A stretch of 20,815 bases of DNA from a virus. Its lineage: Duplodnaviria > Heunggongvirae > Uroviricota > Caudoviricetes. Positions within the stretch are counted from its first letter, which is position 1; each line of letters starts with the position of its first letter. Position numbers and translations under genes: made by a program. Location: the IMG/VR virus record IMGVR_UViG_2534681773_000020. One strand, given 5' to 3'. This document shows, piece after piece, positions 7,846 through 16,976 of this stretch. The notes under the pieces were generated by a model. That model made no database searches and was not told the DNA's origin. It worked only from the letters and a program-made list of their open reading frames with translations.

Positions 7846-8865
7846 ATGGCCGCATTACCATACATGCAACTGTACATAGCTGATTACCTTGCTGACACCA
7901 TGCATTTGTCAGCAGAGGAGCACGGTGCGTATTTGTTGCTGATGTTCAATTACTGGCAAACAGGAAAGCCAATACCTAAAAACAGGCTGGCAAAAATTTC
8001 CCGTCTGACTAACGAGCGATGGGCTGATGTGGAACCATCCTTGCGGGAGTTTTTTTGCGATAACGGCGATGAATGGGTGCATCTTCGGATTGAGGAAGAT
8101 CTGGCATCAGTCAGGGAAAAATTAACCAAAAAATCAGCCGCCGGAAAAGCATCTGTTCAAGCCAGAAGAAGCAGAAAGGAAGCAGATGTTCAAACAAAAC
8201 AAGAGAGAGATTTAACAGGTGTTCAAACAAATGTTGGCGTGGTGTTTGAACATGGCGCAAACACAAAAGCAACTAATAAAGATACAGATACAGATCTAAA
8301 AGAATTAAACCCCACACATAACGCGCGCATGCGCGAGAGTGCTCCGACCAGTGAGTCGAATGGCGTGCCGTTGCAGGCAGCGGAACCTGATTACCTGGAA
8401 GGCCTGAGCGAACCCATCGGGAAATTTCCGATGACCGATGGCTGGCATCCGTCGCCGGATTTTCGACGGCGGGCTGCACTGTGGGGAGTGACTCTGCCGG
8501 AGTCGGAATTTACGCCTGCTGAACTTGCCGCCTTCCGGGACTACTGGGCAGCGGAGGGGAAAGTGTTTACGCAGATTCAGTGGGAGCAGAAATTCGCCCG
8601 TCACGTAAATCACGTCAGGGCGCAGGTTAAACCAGTCAGCAAGGGGGTAAACCATGCAGCAGCACCAGGTGGCACCGCATCACGGGCAGTTCAGGAAATT
8701 CGGGCAGCACGTGAGCAGTGGGAACGTGAAAACGGATTTATCAGCGACGGAAACGGCCTGGAAGCTGTGGGAACTCATGGGGGAGGTTTATTCGAACCGC
8801 TGGACCCAGAAAAACGGGGCCGCACCTTCGAAGCTCTGGATTGCACAGATTGGCGCGATGACTGA
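7846..8865 (+). CDS. Replication initiator, DUF1376 (YdaU-like) family; lambda O functional analog
   Basis: N-terminal DUF1376-like motif YIADYLADTMHLSAEEHGAYLLLMFNYWQTG; GAGG 5 nt upstream of ATG 7846 (ORF track alternative 7735); internal iteron-like repeats and AT-rich stretch in the inter-domain linker. Confidence 0.7.
   Translation: MAALPYMQLYIADYLADTMHLSAEEHGAYLLLMFNYWQTGKPIPKNRLAKISRLTNERWADVEPSLREFFCDNGDEWVHLRIEEDLASVREKLTKKSAAGKASVQARRSRKEADVQTKQERDLTGVQTNVGVVFEHGANTKATNKDTDTDLKELNPTHNARMRESAPTSESNGVPLQAAEPDYLEGLSEPIGKFPMTDGWHPSPDFRRRAALWGVTLPESEFTPAELAAFRDYWAAEGKVFTQIQWEQKFARHVNHVRAQVKPVSKGVNHAAAPGGTASRAVQEIRAAREQWERENGFISDGNGLEAVGTHGGGLFEPLDPEKRGRTFEALDCTDWRDD
8187..8310. repeat. 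Putative replication origin: TGTTCAAACAAA direct repeats at 8187-8198 and 8220-8231, inverted copy TGTTTGAACA at 8243-8252, followed by A-rich tract
   Basis: Direct repeats 33 bp apart inside the initiator gene linker, analogous to lambda ori iterons within O. Confidence 0.4.
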
Positions 8866-9319
8866 GCAGCAAATCCGACAGGTCTGCCGCCAGTGCATGG
8901 ACCGCTGCCGGGCGGGTGAAACATGGCCTCCGGACCTGGCTGAGTTTGTGGCACTGATTTCGGAAAGCGGAGTCAATCCATTCGGTCTGACGGTGGATGC
9001 TGTGATGGAGGAGTACCGCCGCTGGCGCAATGAGTCCTGGCGATACGACGGAAGTGATAAGTACCCGTGGTCTCAGCCTGTGCTGTATCACATTTGTCTC
9101 GAGATGCGTTCAAAGGGGATCGAGCGTCAGATGACCGAAGGGGAGTTAAAACGACTTGCAGAACGGCAGCTGACGAAATGGGCAAAGCATGTTGGTAACG
9201 GCCTCAGTGTTCCGCCAGTCCGGCGGCAACTGGCGGCACCCAAACGACCGTCGGGACCAACGCCAATTGAGTTGCTGAAACAGGAATATGAGCGCCGGAA
9301 AGCGGCTGGTTTTGTATGA
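8654..9319 (+). CDS. Replication protein P-like (DnaB helicase loader)
   Basis: C-terminal half resembles lambda P (LAEFVALI, YPWSQPVLYHI, TEGELKRLAERQL); AAGGGGG SD before ATG 8654; alternative starts at 8777 and 8858 (ATGACTGA overlap with upstream stop). Confidence 0.65.
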   Translation: MQQHQVAPHHGQFRKFGQHVSSGNVKTDLSATETAWKLWELMGEVYSNRWTQKNGAAPSKLWIAQIGAMTEQQIRQVCRQCMDRCRAGETWPPDLAEFVALISESGVNPFGLTVDAVMEEYRRWRNESWRYDGSDKYPWSQPVLYHICLEMRSKGIERQMTEGELKRLAERQLTKWAKHVGNGLSVPPVRRQLAAPKRPSGPTPIELLKQEYERRKAAGFV

Positions 9320-9741
9320 ATTGTGAAGGTGATTTTTCAGGAGGGCTTGTGGCAAAAGCATATACACCCGAACAGCGGGAGAATCTGAAGGCTCGAATAA
9401 TCGATCTGGTGCGCAAAAATGAACGCATGACGATGTCACAGCTGGAGAGAGCGACGGGAGCAGGCTGGCATTCGGTTCGACGCTGCCTTGTGGATGTGCT
9501 GGCTTGCGGGGATTTATACATGTCCGGTAAATACGGTGTTTTTGCGTCAGAGCAGGCGTATCGCACATGGCGTAAGAAGCCGGAGAAAGCGGACATGGCG
9601 CTGGTCAGAAAGCTGCCAGATGGAGAAATACGTCGCTACGACAGGAGTCAGAACATAATTTGTCGCGAGTGCCGGAAGAGCGAAGCTATGCAGCGTGTAC
9701 TGGCTTTTTATCAGGGTAATTATCAGGAGGTGATGGCGTGA
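9316..9741 (+). CDS. Hypothetical protein with predicted winged-helix segment (141 aa)
   Basis: ATGA overlap with P-like stop; HTH-like MTMSQLERATGAGWHSVRRCLVDV; CRECRK near C-terminus. Confidence 0.65.
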   Translation: MNCEGDFSGGLVAKAYTPEQRENLKARIIDLVRKNERMTMSQLERATGAGWHSVRRCLVDVLACGDLYMSGKYGVFASEQAYRTWRKKPEKADMALVRKLPDGEIRRYDRSQNIICRECRKSEAMQRVLAFYQGNYQEVMA

Positions 9742-10037
9742 GGGTGAGGGTTTATATCGCTGGTCCGATGATCGGGTATAAAAATTTCAACCGTGAGGCG
9801 TTCCACAATGCGGAAGAGGAACTGAAACGGGAAGGGCATACAGTCTTAAACCCGGCAGTACTTCCGGACGGGCTGACACAGCCGCACTACATGGATATTT
9901 GCATGGCAATGATTCGTTGTGTGGATGCGATTTACATGCTGAAAGGCTGGCAGCGGTCAGCTGGCGCTAAGGCAGAACTGGCGCTGGCGGAGAAACTGGG
10001 GCATGCAGTTATTTTCCAGGAGACAGCCAGTGAGTGA
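9738..10037 (+). CDS. DUF4406 / nucleoside 2-deoxyribosyltransferase-like fold protein (99 aa)
   Basis: GTG start with AGGAGG 7 nt upstream, GTGA overlap with previous stop; N-terminal YIAGPM motif typical of the nucleoside deoxyribosyltransferase-like superfamily. Confidence 0.65.
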   Translation: MRVRVYIAGPMIGYKNFNREAFHNAEEELKREGHTVLNPAVLPDGLTQPHYMDICMAMIRCVDAIYMLKGWQRSAGAKAELALAEKLGHAVIFQETASE

Positions 10038-10290
10038 ATCAAAATGCCAGGTTCATGGCAACAAAATAGAACCGTGTGCTGCATTGGCAAAAGCACTCGA
10101 ATATGGAAATCCAGCATTTAAGAGTAAAGGCATATTTATCCCGGAACGCGTGAATATAAACACCGGCGAGCCAGGCTTAGACATCGCTCAAATACACTCC
10201 GGTCAATATGTTGGTCGTGGCGTTGCAATGTGTTTTTGTCCGTTCTGTGGTGAAAGTCTGAAAACATGGGGAGGAGGAAGTAACCGGTGA
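10030..10290 (+). CDS. Hypothetical small cysteine-containing protein (86 aa, possible zinc-binding CPFCGE motif)
   Basis: GTG at 10030 with AGGAGA 7 nt upstream; ORF track ATG alternative at 10003 overlaps previous gene. Confidence 0.5.
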   Translation: MSESKCQVHGNKIEPCAALAKALEYGNPAFKSKGIFIPERVNINTGEPGLDIAQIHSGQYVGRGVAMCFCPFCGESLKTWGGGSNR

Positions 10291-10402
10291 GCGAAATTAA
10301 GTTTCAGGCACTGCGTGAAGTGAAAGAGAAAGCATAATCCAAATCTGAATAATTAAATTCAGCACTGTAAATAAAATTTAATCCTTAACCGGAGGAGTAT
10401 CT

Positions 10403-10615
10403 ATGTTAAATACACAAAAAAACATTAACGCGGAAAAATATAACGAGTGGGTGAAAAAATTTTCTGAGCAGATTCTTAAAATCACTGGCGACGAGAATGT
10501 GGCAAAAAATGAATTAGAACCATGGACGCCTGAAGGGGGCGAACCAAATTATTGCTGGTGGGAGGTTAATCCAGTTGATGCTGCAAATGAAGCTATGAGT
10601 TATCACAACGATTAA
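10403..10615 (+). CDS. Hypothetical protein (70 aa) in AT-rich island
   Basis: GGAGGAG SD 5 nt upstream of ATG; followed by GNRA-loop hairpin CCGCCC-GAAA-GGGCGG at 10626-10641. Confidence 0.6.
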   Translation: MLNTQKNINAEKYNEWVKKFSEQILKITGDENVAKNELEPWTPEGGEPNYCWWEVNPVDAANEAMSYHND

Positions 10616-10866
10616 TGTCAGGAGGCCGCCCGAAAGGGCGGTAATGAATGGTCACATTATTTAGAAAAAATATCCGCGAAAGAGTAGAACAACAGAATTT
10701 CTGTTTCTCATTCTGTTTATCGTGTTGATGATACCGATATCCCCGTTAATCCTAGTATGGATAATCGGAAAAATAATTGAGCCAGTTATTGAATTGTATA
10801 ACGACGTGGTATGGGCGTCATTCAACACACTGCACAATAAAATTAATCCGTATAAGGAAAACTGAT

Positions 10867-11130
10867 ATGGCAACTTTGACAAAAAAAGAACGGGCATGGT
10901 TGAACGAATTACAGGAAGTTCTTGATCGCTGTCCATCACCGAAAAAAATTGGCTTTTACACCATTGGCGATAAAAGCATTTACCTGTATGACCTACGCCG
11001 CATGGATGAAATCATGGAGGCTCTTGATAATCGTTCGTCGATGGATTGGTGTGTTGCTGTTCATGATATGAATGCAGGGTTTGATGAAAAGATTTTGTTC
11101 CCCTCATCAGTTGAAAGCACTGCGGGTTAA
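10867..11130 (+). CDS. Hypothetical protein (87 aa) in AT-rich island
   Basis: ATG at 10867 with AAGGAAA 6 nt upstream; ORF track TTG start at 10777 considered less likely. Confidence 0.6.
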   Translation: MATLTKKERAWLNELQEVLDRCPSPKKIGFYTIGDKSIYLYDLRRMDEIMEALDNRSSMDWCVAVHDMNAGFDEKILFPSSVESTAG

Positions 11131-11140
11131 GGAGTAACAC

Positions 11141-12010
11141 ATGACCACTATTACCAAAGAACGTATTGAATTGTTCATTAAAAATCCGCTTGAAAACGGG
11201 CTTACCCGTGGTGAACAAATGGAACTGGCACGGATTGCGCTGGCATCGCTGGAAGCAGAGCCGGTGGCAAAGATTATAGCTCATTACCCATTAGGGGTTG
11301 ACGTAGGCAAACAAAAATTTGTACAGGCCATTAGAGAGCTTCCTGACTTTGGCGGATATCTATTTGCCGCCCCTCCAGCGCCGATAGTGCCGGAAGAAAT
11401 GTATTGGCAGGATGCGCCAGTTGAAGGCAGCAGCAAAGCGGCTGCATACGCTACAGGCTGGAACGATTGCCGCGAAGCCATGTTTCAGTCCGGAAACTTT
11501 CGGGAAAATAAAGATTCGTCAACCAATAATTTTCGGAAAATCCCGGAAGCGTCAACCAGCTCTCCGGTAACTCCGGCTCTTCTGCCTGGTGGTTTCACCA
11601 TTGAGGAGGCGAAGGAATTACATGAAGACCTGGCACGCAGCCACATAAGCAAGGCCTTAAGTGGCGAAAAGATGAAAAAGAAAGATCGCGATGCTGATTT
11701 GCGCTGGATTCATGGCGTTATAGTTCAGGCAGCGTGGTTTGTAAAAGCATCACTGGAGCAGAATGCACTATCGGGCAACTATCCGGTAACTCCGGATAGT
11801 TGGATAAGCTGTAGTGAGCGAATGCCGGATACCAAAACAGCCGTTCTTGTTGCCAGGGATTTTGGCAGGAAAGGTGACTGGCGAATGAAATGGGCGACTT
11901 ACATCCCGGGGCATCCTGACGCTAATGATGGGTGGATAATACCTGGTGCGTCGTGGATACCATCACACTGGATGCCTCTACCAGAACCGCCGCAGGAGGT
12001 GCGCCAATGA
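11141..12010 (+). CDS. DUF551 domain-containing phage protein (289 aa)
   Basis: AAGGAG SD 6 nt upstream; C-terminal WIIPGASWIPSHWMPLPEPP resembles the DUF551 signature seen in nin-region proteins. Confidence 0.7.
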   Translation: MTTITKERIELFIKNPLENGLTRGEQMELARIALASLEAEPVAKIIAHYPLGVDVGKQKFVQAIRELPDFGGYLFAAPPAPIVPEEMYWQDAPVEGSSKAAAYATGWNDCREAMFQSGNFRENKDSSTNNFRKIPEASTSSPVTPALLPGGFTIEEAKELHEDLARSHISKALSGEKMKKKDRDADLRWIHGVIVQAAWFVKASLEQNALSGNYPVTPDSWISCSERMPDTKTAVLVARDFGRKGDWRMKWATYIPGHPDANDGWIIPGASWIPSHWMPLPEPPQEVRQ

Positions 12011-12238: not shown

Positions 12239-12475
12239 CGATATGGGAATTCCCATATCGGGTAAAAACGGTTTGCGGTAAAGCGAGAGTTAAGTAGAAT
12301 TGCTGCGGGTGCTTGAGGCTGTCTGCCTCGGGCATGCCACCGTAAGGCAGACAGAGAAAAGCCCCAGTTAACATTACGCGTCCTGCAAGACGCTTAACAT
12401 TAATCTGAGGCCCAATCTATGCTTCACAAACGTAGGTTAGCCTCTTACGCGCCGAAAGGCAAGGAGAAGCAGGCT
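12239..12475. promoter_or_regulatory. Structured leader/regulatory region upstream of hok-like toxin (candidate mok-leader and antisense Sok-like RNA region)
   Basis: 22-bp perfect palindrome CGATATGGGAATTCCCATATCG (12239-12260); 10-bp inverted repeat CTGTCTGCCT/AGGCAGACAG (about 12319-12354); direct repeat TTAACATTA x2 flanking GCGTC/GACGC hairpin (about 12368-12402). Confidence 0.4.
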
Positions 12476-12631
12476 ATGAAGCAGCAAAAGGCGATGTTAA
12501 TCGCCCTGATCGTCATCTGTTTAACCGTCATAGTGACGGCACTGGTAACGAGGAAAGACCTCTGCGAGGTACGAATCCGAACCGGCCAGACGGAGGTCGC
12601 TGTCTTCACAGCTTACGAACCTGAGGAGTAA
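12476..12631 (+). CDS. hokD: Hok/Gef-family type I toxin (51 aa)
   Basis: MKQQKAMLIALIVICLTVIVTALVTRKDLCEVRIRTGQTEVAVFTAYEPEE matches the Hok family signature and the recalled HokD/RelF sequence; AAGGAGAAG SD; in-frame upstream extension from 12419 may correspond to a mok-like frame. Confidence 0.8.
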   Translation: MKQQKAMLIALIVICLTVIVTALVTRKDLCEVRIRTGQTEVAVFTAYEPEE

Positions 12632-16723: not shown

Positions 16724-16799
16724 GGCCCTTTAGCTCAGTGGTGAGAGCGAGCGACTCATAATCGCCAGGTCGCTGGTTCAAATCCAGCAAGGGCCACCA
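16724..16799 (+). tRNA. ileZ: tRNA with anticodon CAT (Ile2 lysidine-type or Met; resembles ileX/ileZ class), CCA encoded
   Basis: Cloverleaf folded by hand: acceptor GGCCCTT/AAGGGCC, D-stem GCTC/GAGC, anticodon loop CTCATAA, T-arm GCTGG-TTCAAAT-CCAGC. Confidence 0.85.
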
Positions 16800-16899: not shown

Positions 16900-16976
16900 G
16901 CGTTGTTAGCTCAGCCGGACAGAGCAATTGCCTTCTAAGCAATCGGTCAGTGGTTCGACTCCACTACAACGCGCCA
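16900..16976 (+). tRNA. argO: tRNA-Arg (anticodon TCT), CCA encoded
   Basis: Acceptor GCGTTGT/ACAACGC, D-stem GCTC/GAGC, anticodon stem ATTGC/GCAAT with loop CTTCTAA, T-arm AGTGG-TTCGACT-CCACT. Confidence 0.85.

Follow-up and report, generated by a model that had tools for sequence, protein, structure and literature searches.

The closest described relatives of the phage protein considered here are enzymes of the nucleoside deoxyribosyltransferase (NDT)/DNPH1/MilB fold. DNPH1, also called Rcl, is a eukaryotic 2'-deoxynucleoside 5'-phosphate N-hydrolase and a 5-hydroxymethyl-dUMP N-hydrolase, while MilB, BcmB and BlsM, which are encoded in antibiotic biosynthesis clusters, are N-glycosidases of cytidine 5'-monophosphate (CMP) or hydroxymethyl-CMP, their substrates being nucleotides, not nucleosides. 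In the structures of Lactobacillus NDT, the site for the acceptor base is completed by the C-terminal half of the fold of the adjacent subunit. In DNPH1, Glu104 acts as nucleophile and forms a hydrogen bond with Tyr24, the role of general acid/base has been proposed for Asp80, and the 5'-phosphate is held by the loop NH groups of residues 29-31, the NH of Gly100, the OH of Ser98 and Ser128 of the other subunit (PMC10483697). Our study examined a 20,815-nucleotide (nt) stretch of DNA from a virus of the class Caudoviricetes (IMG/VR record IMGVR_UViG_2534681773_000020), hereafter the window, and within it a trio of adjacent genes at 9316-10290 on the plus strand, referred to as genes 1 to 3, of which gene 2 encodes a DUF4406 protein. 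We read this locus as an ordinary mosaic early-right stretch with three independently exchangeable accessory genes, in which gene 2 most likely encodes a minimal N-glycosidase of nucleoside 5'-monophosphates or 2'-deoxynucleoside 5'-monophosphates (NMP/dNMP), and we hold this composite reading to be about evenly poised between right and wrong.

Gene 2 matched the DUF4406 hidden Markov model (PF14359) with an E-value of 1.8e-36 and a score of 124.9 bits against a cut-off of 22, and the match was full-length, with residues 4-93 aligned to model positions 2-91 of 91. A preliminary description of this locus, made from the sequence alone, had reported a 99-amino-acid (aa) DUF4406 protein with a YIAGPM motif, and both the length and the motif were confirmed. 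In PHROG, the protein belongs to phrog_355, which is labelled nucleoside 2-deoxyribosyltransferase. The ratio of non-synonymous to synonymous substitution rates (dN/dS) was 0.06 across 39 distinct E. coli-type alleles; the gene evolves under strong purifying selection. The family is large, comprising 17,097 representative clusters at 50 % identity (E ≤1e-3), and DUF4406 was present in 460 GenBank phage records with hosts including Vibrio, Arthrobacter, Mycobacterium, Gordonia and Pseudomonas. Twenty long DUF4406 representatives (214-358 aa) displayed no second Pfam domain, their extensions being either unknown domains or over-extended open reading frame (ORF) calls. The labels 'dCMP deaminase' and 'MazG-like' on actinophage homologues were considered as a sign of fusions and rejected, as these are plain DUF4406 proteins that have been mis-annotated. 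Pfam found DUF4406 alone in Arthrobacter phage TaylorSipht gp52 ('deoxycytidylate deaminase') and likewise in Mycobacterium phage Ariel gp162 ('MazG-like pyrophosphatase'), the true MazG-like gene of Ariel being gp164, two genes downstream.

An AlphaFold2 (AF2) model of gene 2, built from an alignment of 40 sequences, had a predicted local distance difference test (pLDDT) score of 85.8 and a beta1-alpha1-beta2-alpha2-beta3-alpha3-beta4 core. With its parallel strands and alpha/beta core, the model represents a minimal, four-strand version of the deoxyribosyltransferase/DNPH1 fold. Foldseek comparison with the PDB placed NDTs best (2a0k, E 1e-5, template modelling (TM) score 0.73) and also retrieved human and rat DNPH1 (8rpt, 8rps, 4kxm and 4fyi), MilB, BcmB and BlsM (4jem, 4jen and 5vto). 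The matches to NDTs, DNPH1 and MilB carried a probability of 1.0 and TM scores of 0.67-0.77, normalised to query length. By its predicted structure, gene 2 belongs to the NDT/DNPH1/MilB fold, and to this extent the superfamily that had been proposed for it stands. The LOG-type hydrolases, named in the same proposal, did not hold up: LOG-family proteins carry the motif PGGxGTxxE, and gene 2 has WQRSAGAKAE at this site, gave no LOG Pfam match and retrieved no LOG structure among its top 50 PDB fold matches. Searches of PDB sequences with single DUF4406 sequences and with the close family returned nothing relevant; a profile of 50 diverse DUF4406 sequences was the sole profile to reach NDTs (T. 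brucei NDT, 2a0k, E 2.4e-5), with weak matches to L. mexicana NDT and BcmB. When predicted viral structures were searched with Foldseek, many phage 'deoxyribosyltransferase' proteins were found, and the BFVD names among these matches included DUF4406 fusions called dATP/dGTP diphosphohydrolase domain proteins.

The active site was examined using two sets, one of 50 diverse DUF4406 representatives, on which conservation was scored, and one of 40 close relatives. The human DNPH1 query sequence was checked against PDB entries, and the residue register was derived from a HMMER alignment, from hhalign against DNPH1 and from hhalign against an alignment of 16 DNPH1 sequences. The candidate active-site residues of gene 2 are Tyr6, Gly9, Gly13, Cys55, Ser74, Gly76 and Glu80. 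All three alignments gave the same register, pairing Y6 with Tyr24, G9 with Gly27, G13 with Gly31, C55 with Asp80, D63 with Asp88, S74 with Ser98, G76 with Gly100 and E80 with Glu104 (DNPH1 numbering), and E80 and Y6 also aligned with the Glu and Tyr of T. brucei NDT. Nine positions (G9, F22, P39, P43, Y51, S74, G76, E80 and A84) were invariant in the 50 diverse representatives, while position 6 was Tyr in 45 of them (90 %) and Phe in 4. Gene 2 therefore shares with DNPH1 a core fold, a strand-1 Tyr, a Gly-rich phosphate loop and a Ser-x-Gly-x3-Glu motif whose final Glu, the nucleophile, opens helix 3; the same motif aligns with BcmB. Ser74 and Gly76, which correspond to the 5'-phosphate contacts of DNPH1- and MilB-type enzymes, were present in 50 of 50 representatives. 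In particular, a Ser stands six residues before the nucleophile Glu in DNPH1, in the nucleotide-specific BcmB and in DUF4406, whereas nucleoside transferases have Asp at this position. The comparison with DNPH1 called for in the preliminary description thus found that the expected catalytic Tyr, nucleophile Glu and phosphate-binding Ser-x-Gly vary little or not at all within the family; Asp as general acid/base and the C-terminal segment were lacking. As predicted from its sequence, gene 2 retains the nucleophile with its Tyr, as well as the part of the phosphate site provided in cis, and yet its active site is non-canonical. Asp53 was considered as the catalytic acid and rejected, since no more than 18 of the 50 representatives conserve it and position 55 is the one that falls on the Asp site in all three alignments.

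The neighbours of DUF4406 genes in other phages were sampled in 10 GenBank phages and in 61 non-redundant IMG/VR loci with 225 same-strand neighbouring ORFs. In 10/10 of the GenBank phages the gene lay in a replication, recombination or DNA-modification region, and in three of these unrelated phages (Mycobacterium phage Ariel, Pseudomonas phage Baskent_P6 and Vibrio phage 1.087.A) it adjoined a MazG-like or dATP/dGTP pyrophosphohydrolase gene. DNA methylase genes were found nearby in most of the 10 and were also the most frequent recognizable neighbour families in the IMG/VR loci (18 Pfam matches among the 225 ORFs), with Dam, D12, N4/N6, C5 and MT-A70 types represented. Less frequent IMG/VR neighbours were SSB, RdgC, HNH, dATP/dGTP pyrophosphohydrolase, ribonucleotide reductase and dNMP kinase, and exonucleases were also seen among the neighbours in the sampled phages. 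Pairs or fusions of DUF4406 with a nucleoside triphosphate (NTP) pyrophosphatase occurred in Pseudomonas, Vibrio and Mycobacterium phages and in uncultured phages; those with a dATP/dGTP pyrophosphohydrolase (PF04447/PF18909, MazZ-like) carry the same DUF4406 domain as gene 2.

Gene 2 is most likely an active minimal N-glycosidase acting on a nucleoside 5'-monophosphate (dNMP or NMP), and we infer both its catalysis and its substrate class from the conserved residues and the modelled fold. In such an enzyme, Ser74, Gly76 and the Gly9-Gly13 loop would hold the 5'-phosphate of the nucleotide, and Glu80, tuned by Tyr6, would attack C1' and displace the base. The resulting (deoxy)ribosyl-5-phosphate-enzyme intermediate would then be hydrolysed, with Cys55 at the place usually taken by the general acid/base Asp. 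Its likely role would be to alter or cleanse the pool of nucleotides while phage DNA is being replicated, acting after dNTP pyrophosphatases in phages that have them, for example by removing the base from dNMPs made by pyrophosphatases or nucleases. To this extent the nucleotide-targeting enzyme suggested earlier is retained, as a single gene, plausibly for an N-glycosidase of nucleotides whose site is non-canonical; the three-gene unit in which it was placed is not.

Several observations weigh against this reading. The profile-profile alignment of DUF4406 with DNPH1 was statistically weak (E 0.013, probability 3.4 %), and a first run of hhalign against the single DNPH1 sequence aligned the N-terminus alone, so the residue mapping is consistent rather than proven and rests on the agreement between methods and on the fold match. 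The general acid/base Asp (Asp80 in DNPH1, Asp72 in NDT) is replaced by Cys55, a residue that was invariant in the 40 close relatives and occurred in 32 of the 50 diverse representatives, with Asp in 8. At 99 aa, against a core of about 145 aa in DNPH1, the gene 2 chain ends six residues after strand 4 and is devoid of the segment that supplies Ser128' (Ser128'-Met130' in DNPH1); in the AF2 model, the C-terminal third of the fold is absent. The Cys in place of the general acid/base Asp and the missing C-terminal segment together make catalysis plausible, not assured. DNPH1 is furthermore eukaryotic and gene 2 viral, with an activity that is predicted only, and sequence similarity to MilB, BcmB and BlsM, which are longer, was weak (E 0.19-0.25). 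The neighbour pattern, taken as raw counts, is only suggestive of an enzyme of nucleotide or DNA metabolism, and the window has no MazG-like partner gene, unlike the phages with pyrophosphohydrolase pairs. Our literature search found no functional study of DUF4406 (PF14359), DUF977, LygF or phage deoxyribosyltransferase.

A broader and bolder version of the N-glycosidase reading would make DUF4406 a large class of phage minimal nucleotide N-glycosidases that would be the viral equivalent of DNPH1, with a Cys-for-Asp site that destroys particular non-canonical or signalling nucleotides. We consider this improbable, if a little less so than the rival explanations that follow. Its targets may be products of MazG-type pyrophosphatases, nucleotides of host immunity or, in phages that carry DNA methylases as well, the methylated dNMPs released there, and, if it were true, the activity would control entry into phage DNA or blunt the host response. 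For the window itself little changes, as its genes already stand in RefSeq as DUF977, DUF4406 and hypothetical proteins. The wider value lies in a very large phage family that keeps the DNPH1-type nucleophile and phosphate-binding residues. If a substrate of DUF4406 were defined, phage nucleotide metabolism would gain a step, and the widespread mis-annotation of these proteins as 'nucleoside deoxyribosyltransferase', 'dCMP deaminase' or 'MazG-like' would be corrected.

One rival explanation takes the first of these labels at face value, with DUF4406 a true NDT that swaps bases between deoxynucleosides for salvage or depletes one deoxynucleoside. The phrog_355 label and many GenBank annotations agree with it, the best PDB fold and profile matches of gene 2 are NDTs (PF05014; T. 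brucei 2a0k, L. mexicana 6qai and Lactobacillus NDT), and gene 2 has the Y-x-x-G and nucleophile Glu of these enzymes. A phage NDT with a preference for deoxyadenosine (dA) has been reported, and a base-swap or depletion role has been proposed for the PF05014 NDTs of diaminopurine phages (bioRxiv 10.1101/2025.10.22.683976). However, gene 2 gave no PF05014 match at E ≤0.01, and the NDT Asp six residues before the Glu, which lies at the sugar 5'-OH position, is in DUF4406 an invariant Ser (Ser74), as in enzymes that bind the 5'-phosphate. The general-acid Asp and the C-terminal half of the fold, which NDTs have, are also absent from gene 2, and we judge the NDT explanation unlikely.

The preliminary description had also raised nucleotide second messengers of host immunity as a possible target, and a second rival explanation accordingly sees DUF4406 as a counter-defence enzyme or sponge directed at nucleotide-derived immune signals or molecules related to nicotinamide adenine dinucleotide (NAD). 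Conflict systems centred on nucleotides draw on this fold superfamily, loss of the general-acid Asp is compatible with binding instead of turnover, and the gene itself, a small accessory one of the early region, is strongly constrained by purifying selection and extremely widespread in phages. However, the invariant nucleophile Glu and the Tyr point to an enzyme with a simple nucleotide as its substrate, and the genes that surround DUF4406 are those of replication, recombination, DNA methylases and NTP pyrophosphatases, with no known anti-defence gene among them. No similarity to a characterized anti-defence protein and no supporting literature were found, although no dedicated anti-defence library was searched; NCBIfam and PADLOC gave zero matches for all three proteins, PADLOC covering defence systems and not anti-defence genes. 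The immune target was therefore left without support, and we regard a counter-defence function as unlikely.

The remaining alternatives concern the relation of gene 2 to its neighbours, and depend on how the locus is organized. The window corresponds to a common, previously annotated stretch of a lambdoid E. coli prophage: a prophage of E. coli O55:H7 USDA5905, next to yccA/tusE, is 99.9 % identical to the trio region, and portions of the query were found in 2,124 of 5,426 complete E. coli genomes (approximately 40 %). Three plus-strand ORFs lie directly 3' of replication genes, as had been described, and RefSeq annotates the same three coding sequences (CDSs) in the O55:H7 prophage as 'DUF977 family protein', 'DUF4406 domain-containing protein' and 'hypothetical protein'. 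Because of this annotation in a 99.9 % identical prophage and the low dN/dS of DUF4406, the trio are real genes, not chance ORFs; antisense ORFs across them were unsupported. The replication genes 5' of the trio encode a DUF1376/DnaT-type initiator and a lambda P-like helicase loader, and, the latter being the last replication gene, the trio occupies the ren/nin position of the early-right operon (Table 1). As judged from the sequence, the three genes are tightly packed on one strand and co-transcribed, with neither an excess of promoters nor a convincing terminator predicted within them, and an Rfam scan of 8600-11200 matched no family. The preliminary description was thus right in the ORFs, their place and their families, and wrong in the start codon of gene 1 and in one type of overlap. 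It had the trio chained by ATGA/GTGA start-stop overlaps: DUF977 and DUF4406 do share a true GTGA overlap (9738-9741), the coupling of gene 1 to P is doubtful, and the DUF4406/gene 3 junction is an overlap of 8 nt (GTGAGTGA, 10030-10037), not 4.

Table 1. Positions of the trio, the preceding replication gene and other features in the window
Feature	Position	Strand	Details
Lambda P-like helicase-loader gene	8858-9319	+	PF06992, E 2.2e-16; phrog_109; RefSeq 'replication protein P'
Gene 1, Ren-family/DUF977	9349-9741	+	Likely GTG start at 9349, 130 aa; PF06163, phrog_142
Gene 2, DUF4406	9738-10037	+	GTG start, 99 aa; Shine-Dalgarno sequence AGGAGG at 9725-9730; PF14359
Gene 3, small Cys4 protein	10030-10290	+	GTG start, 86 aa; Shine-Dalgarno sequence AGGAG at 10018-10022; phrog_4030
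ORF with C-terminal DUF551 domain	11141-12010		Intact, 289 aa
Hok-family toxin ORF	12419-12631		HokD/RelF-like
tRNA-Met(CAT)	16724-16799		ARAGORN
tRNA-Arg(TCT)	16900-16976		ARAGORN

Whether the trio travels together was assessed in 80 IMG/VR loci with a DUF4406 gene at 89-98 % identity. A DUF977 gene lay directly upstream in 65 of these, at merely 45-86 % identity, and in the other 15 an unrelated helix-turn-helix (HTH) gene took its place with the same 4-nt overlap. Gene 3 homologues were present in 4 loci, where their adjacency to DUF4406 was not constant, and the commonest downstream gene was Ead/Ea22-like (54/80); the upstream replication genes also differed between loci. The trio consists of independently exchanged genes in the usual lambdoid mosaic, a pattern that speaks against both co-evolving partners and a dedicated system of three proteins, and the candidate three-gene module of the preliminary description was not upheld. 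The gene that replaces DUF977 in the 15 loci has a longest ORF of approximately 105-134 aa and weak Sigma70_r4/HTH_23 Pfam matches toward its C-terminus, and in one of these loci a Hok/Gef ORF follows DUF4406.

These loci bear directly on a third rival explanation, in which DUF4406 is a non-catalytic nucleotide-binding subunit paired with the upstream DNA-binding protein, for instance as a ligand-sensing regulator of replication or exclusion. A small HTH or winged-helix gene, be it DUF977 or the Sigma70_r4/HTH_23-like protein, stood directly upstream in 80/80 of the loci, its stop overlapping the DUF4406 start. However, the two proteins do not co-vary, as a nearly constant DUF4406 is combined with widely divergent DUF977 proteins or with an unrelated HTH protein, most upstream genes outside enterobacteria are not of the HTH type, and 4-nt overlaps are commonplace in early operons of the lambdoid kind, as at lambda P/ren. 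We therefore consider a regulatory pairing to have little chance of being correct. A single functional cassette of DNA-binding protein, enzyme and zinc protein, which would suit the stop/start overlaps, the shared strand and the lack of a predicted terminator or promoter between the genes, is very improbable and largely refuted by distribution, given the scarcity of gene 3 and the Ead/Ea22-like genes that mostly follow DUF4406 in the 80 loci and the occurrence of the full arrangement, at ≥80 % query coverage, in 1 of 5,426 complete E. coli genomes.

Gene 1 matched DUF977 (PF06163) in Pfam with an E-value of 7.6e-57 and phrog_142, 'Ren-like exclusion protein', in PHROG with an E-value of 6e-45. 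It had been described as a 141-aa winged-helix protein, and the winged helix was borne out by profile comparison with the PDB, in which the DUF977/Ren profile retrieved winged-helix domains only (GntR-like at E 9e-4, then Z-alpha, CRP, AsnC and MarR). The 141-aa form, which starts at ATG 9316 and overlaps the stop of the P-like gene, is less likely than a 130-aa form starting at GTG 9349, because a GGAGG at 9340-9344 precedes the latter, the RefSeq start is equivalent to it and it is only from residues 12-13 of the longer form onward that Pfam and PHROG find a match. With the GTG start, the ATGA coupling of gene 1 to P becomes doubtful. Near its C-terminus, gene 1 carries a conserved motif, N-I-I-C-R-E-C-R-K-S-x-x-M-Q-R-V-L-A-F-Y, and BLASTP against lambda Ren gave 59 % identity across a 22-aa C-terminal motif (E 1e-7), while an alignment of lambda Ren with a set of DUF977 alleles spanned the full length of Ren. 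The two genes also share their position, as ren in lambda directly follows and overlaps P and gene 1 directly follows the P-like gene. By these sequence likenesses (position, PHROG family and the C-terminal ECR-x-S-x-x-M-x-RVLA-x-Y motif), gene 1 is a Ren-family member with a predicted winged-helix N-terminal domain. It differs from lambda Ren in its length (130-141 aa with an inserted basic linker, against 96 aa) and in matching Pfam DUF977, which lambda Ren does not. In the older literature, lambda Ren has a role in escape from Rex exclusion. The profile of the N-terminal domain (9349-9540) also weakly matched the Z-alpha domains of PKZ and ADAR1 (E 0.007-0.06); Z-alpha is a winged-helix domain that binds Z-DNA and Z-RNA, and the resemblance is probably generic winged-helix similarity.

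Gene 3 matched phrog_4030 (E 9e-29) and gave no match in Pfam. Its homologues form 86 clusters, exclusively in Enterobacterales (enterobacterial prophages), and open with the same MSESKC sequence. The 86-aa protein had been described as having a Cys motif, and four cysteines, Cys6, Cys16, Cys70 and Cys73, were indeed conserved in the pattern C-x9-C ... C-x2-C. An AF2 model (pLDDT 78.7) was mostly beta, and a fold search of the PDB returned no match with E <3. Gene 3 is probably a small zinc-binding orphan protein, carried as a variable passenger gene.

Further features of the window were noted downstream of the trio. The intact ORF with the DUF551 domain corresponds, in the RefSeq annotation of USDA5905, to partial or pseudogene pieces and a separate DUF551 CDS, which may reflect a difference in sequence or in annotation. 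The Hok-family toxin ORF lies in the nin region and carries the annotation hokD in the near-identical prophage. Ahead of the late region, two tRNA genes were predicted, and RefSeq lists Ile, Arg and Arg tRNAs at the corresponding place in the O55:H7 prophage; the CAT tRNA of the window is probably a lysidine-type tRNA-Ile. The tRNA coordinates are approximately 12 bases off relative to the offset between the trio region and the O55:H7 prophage, and the window and that prophage are therefore imperfectly collinear downstream.

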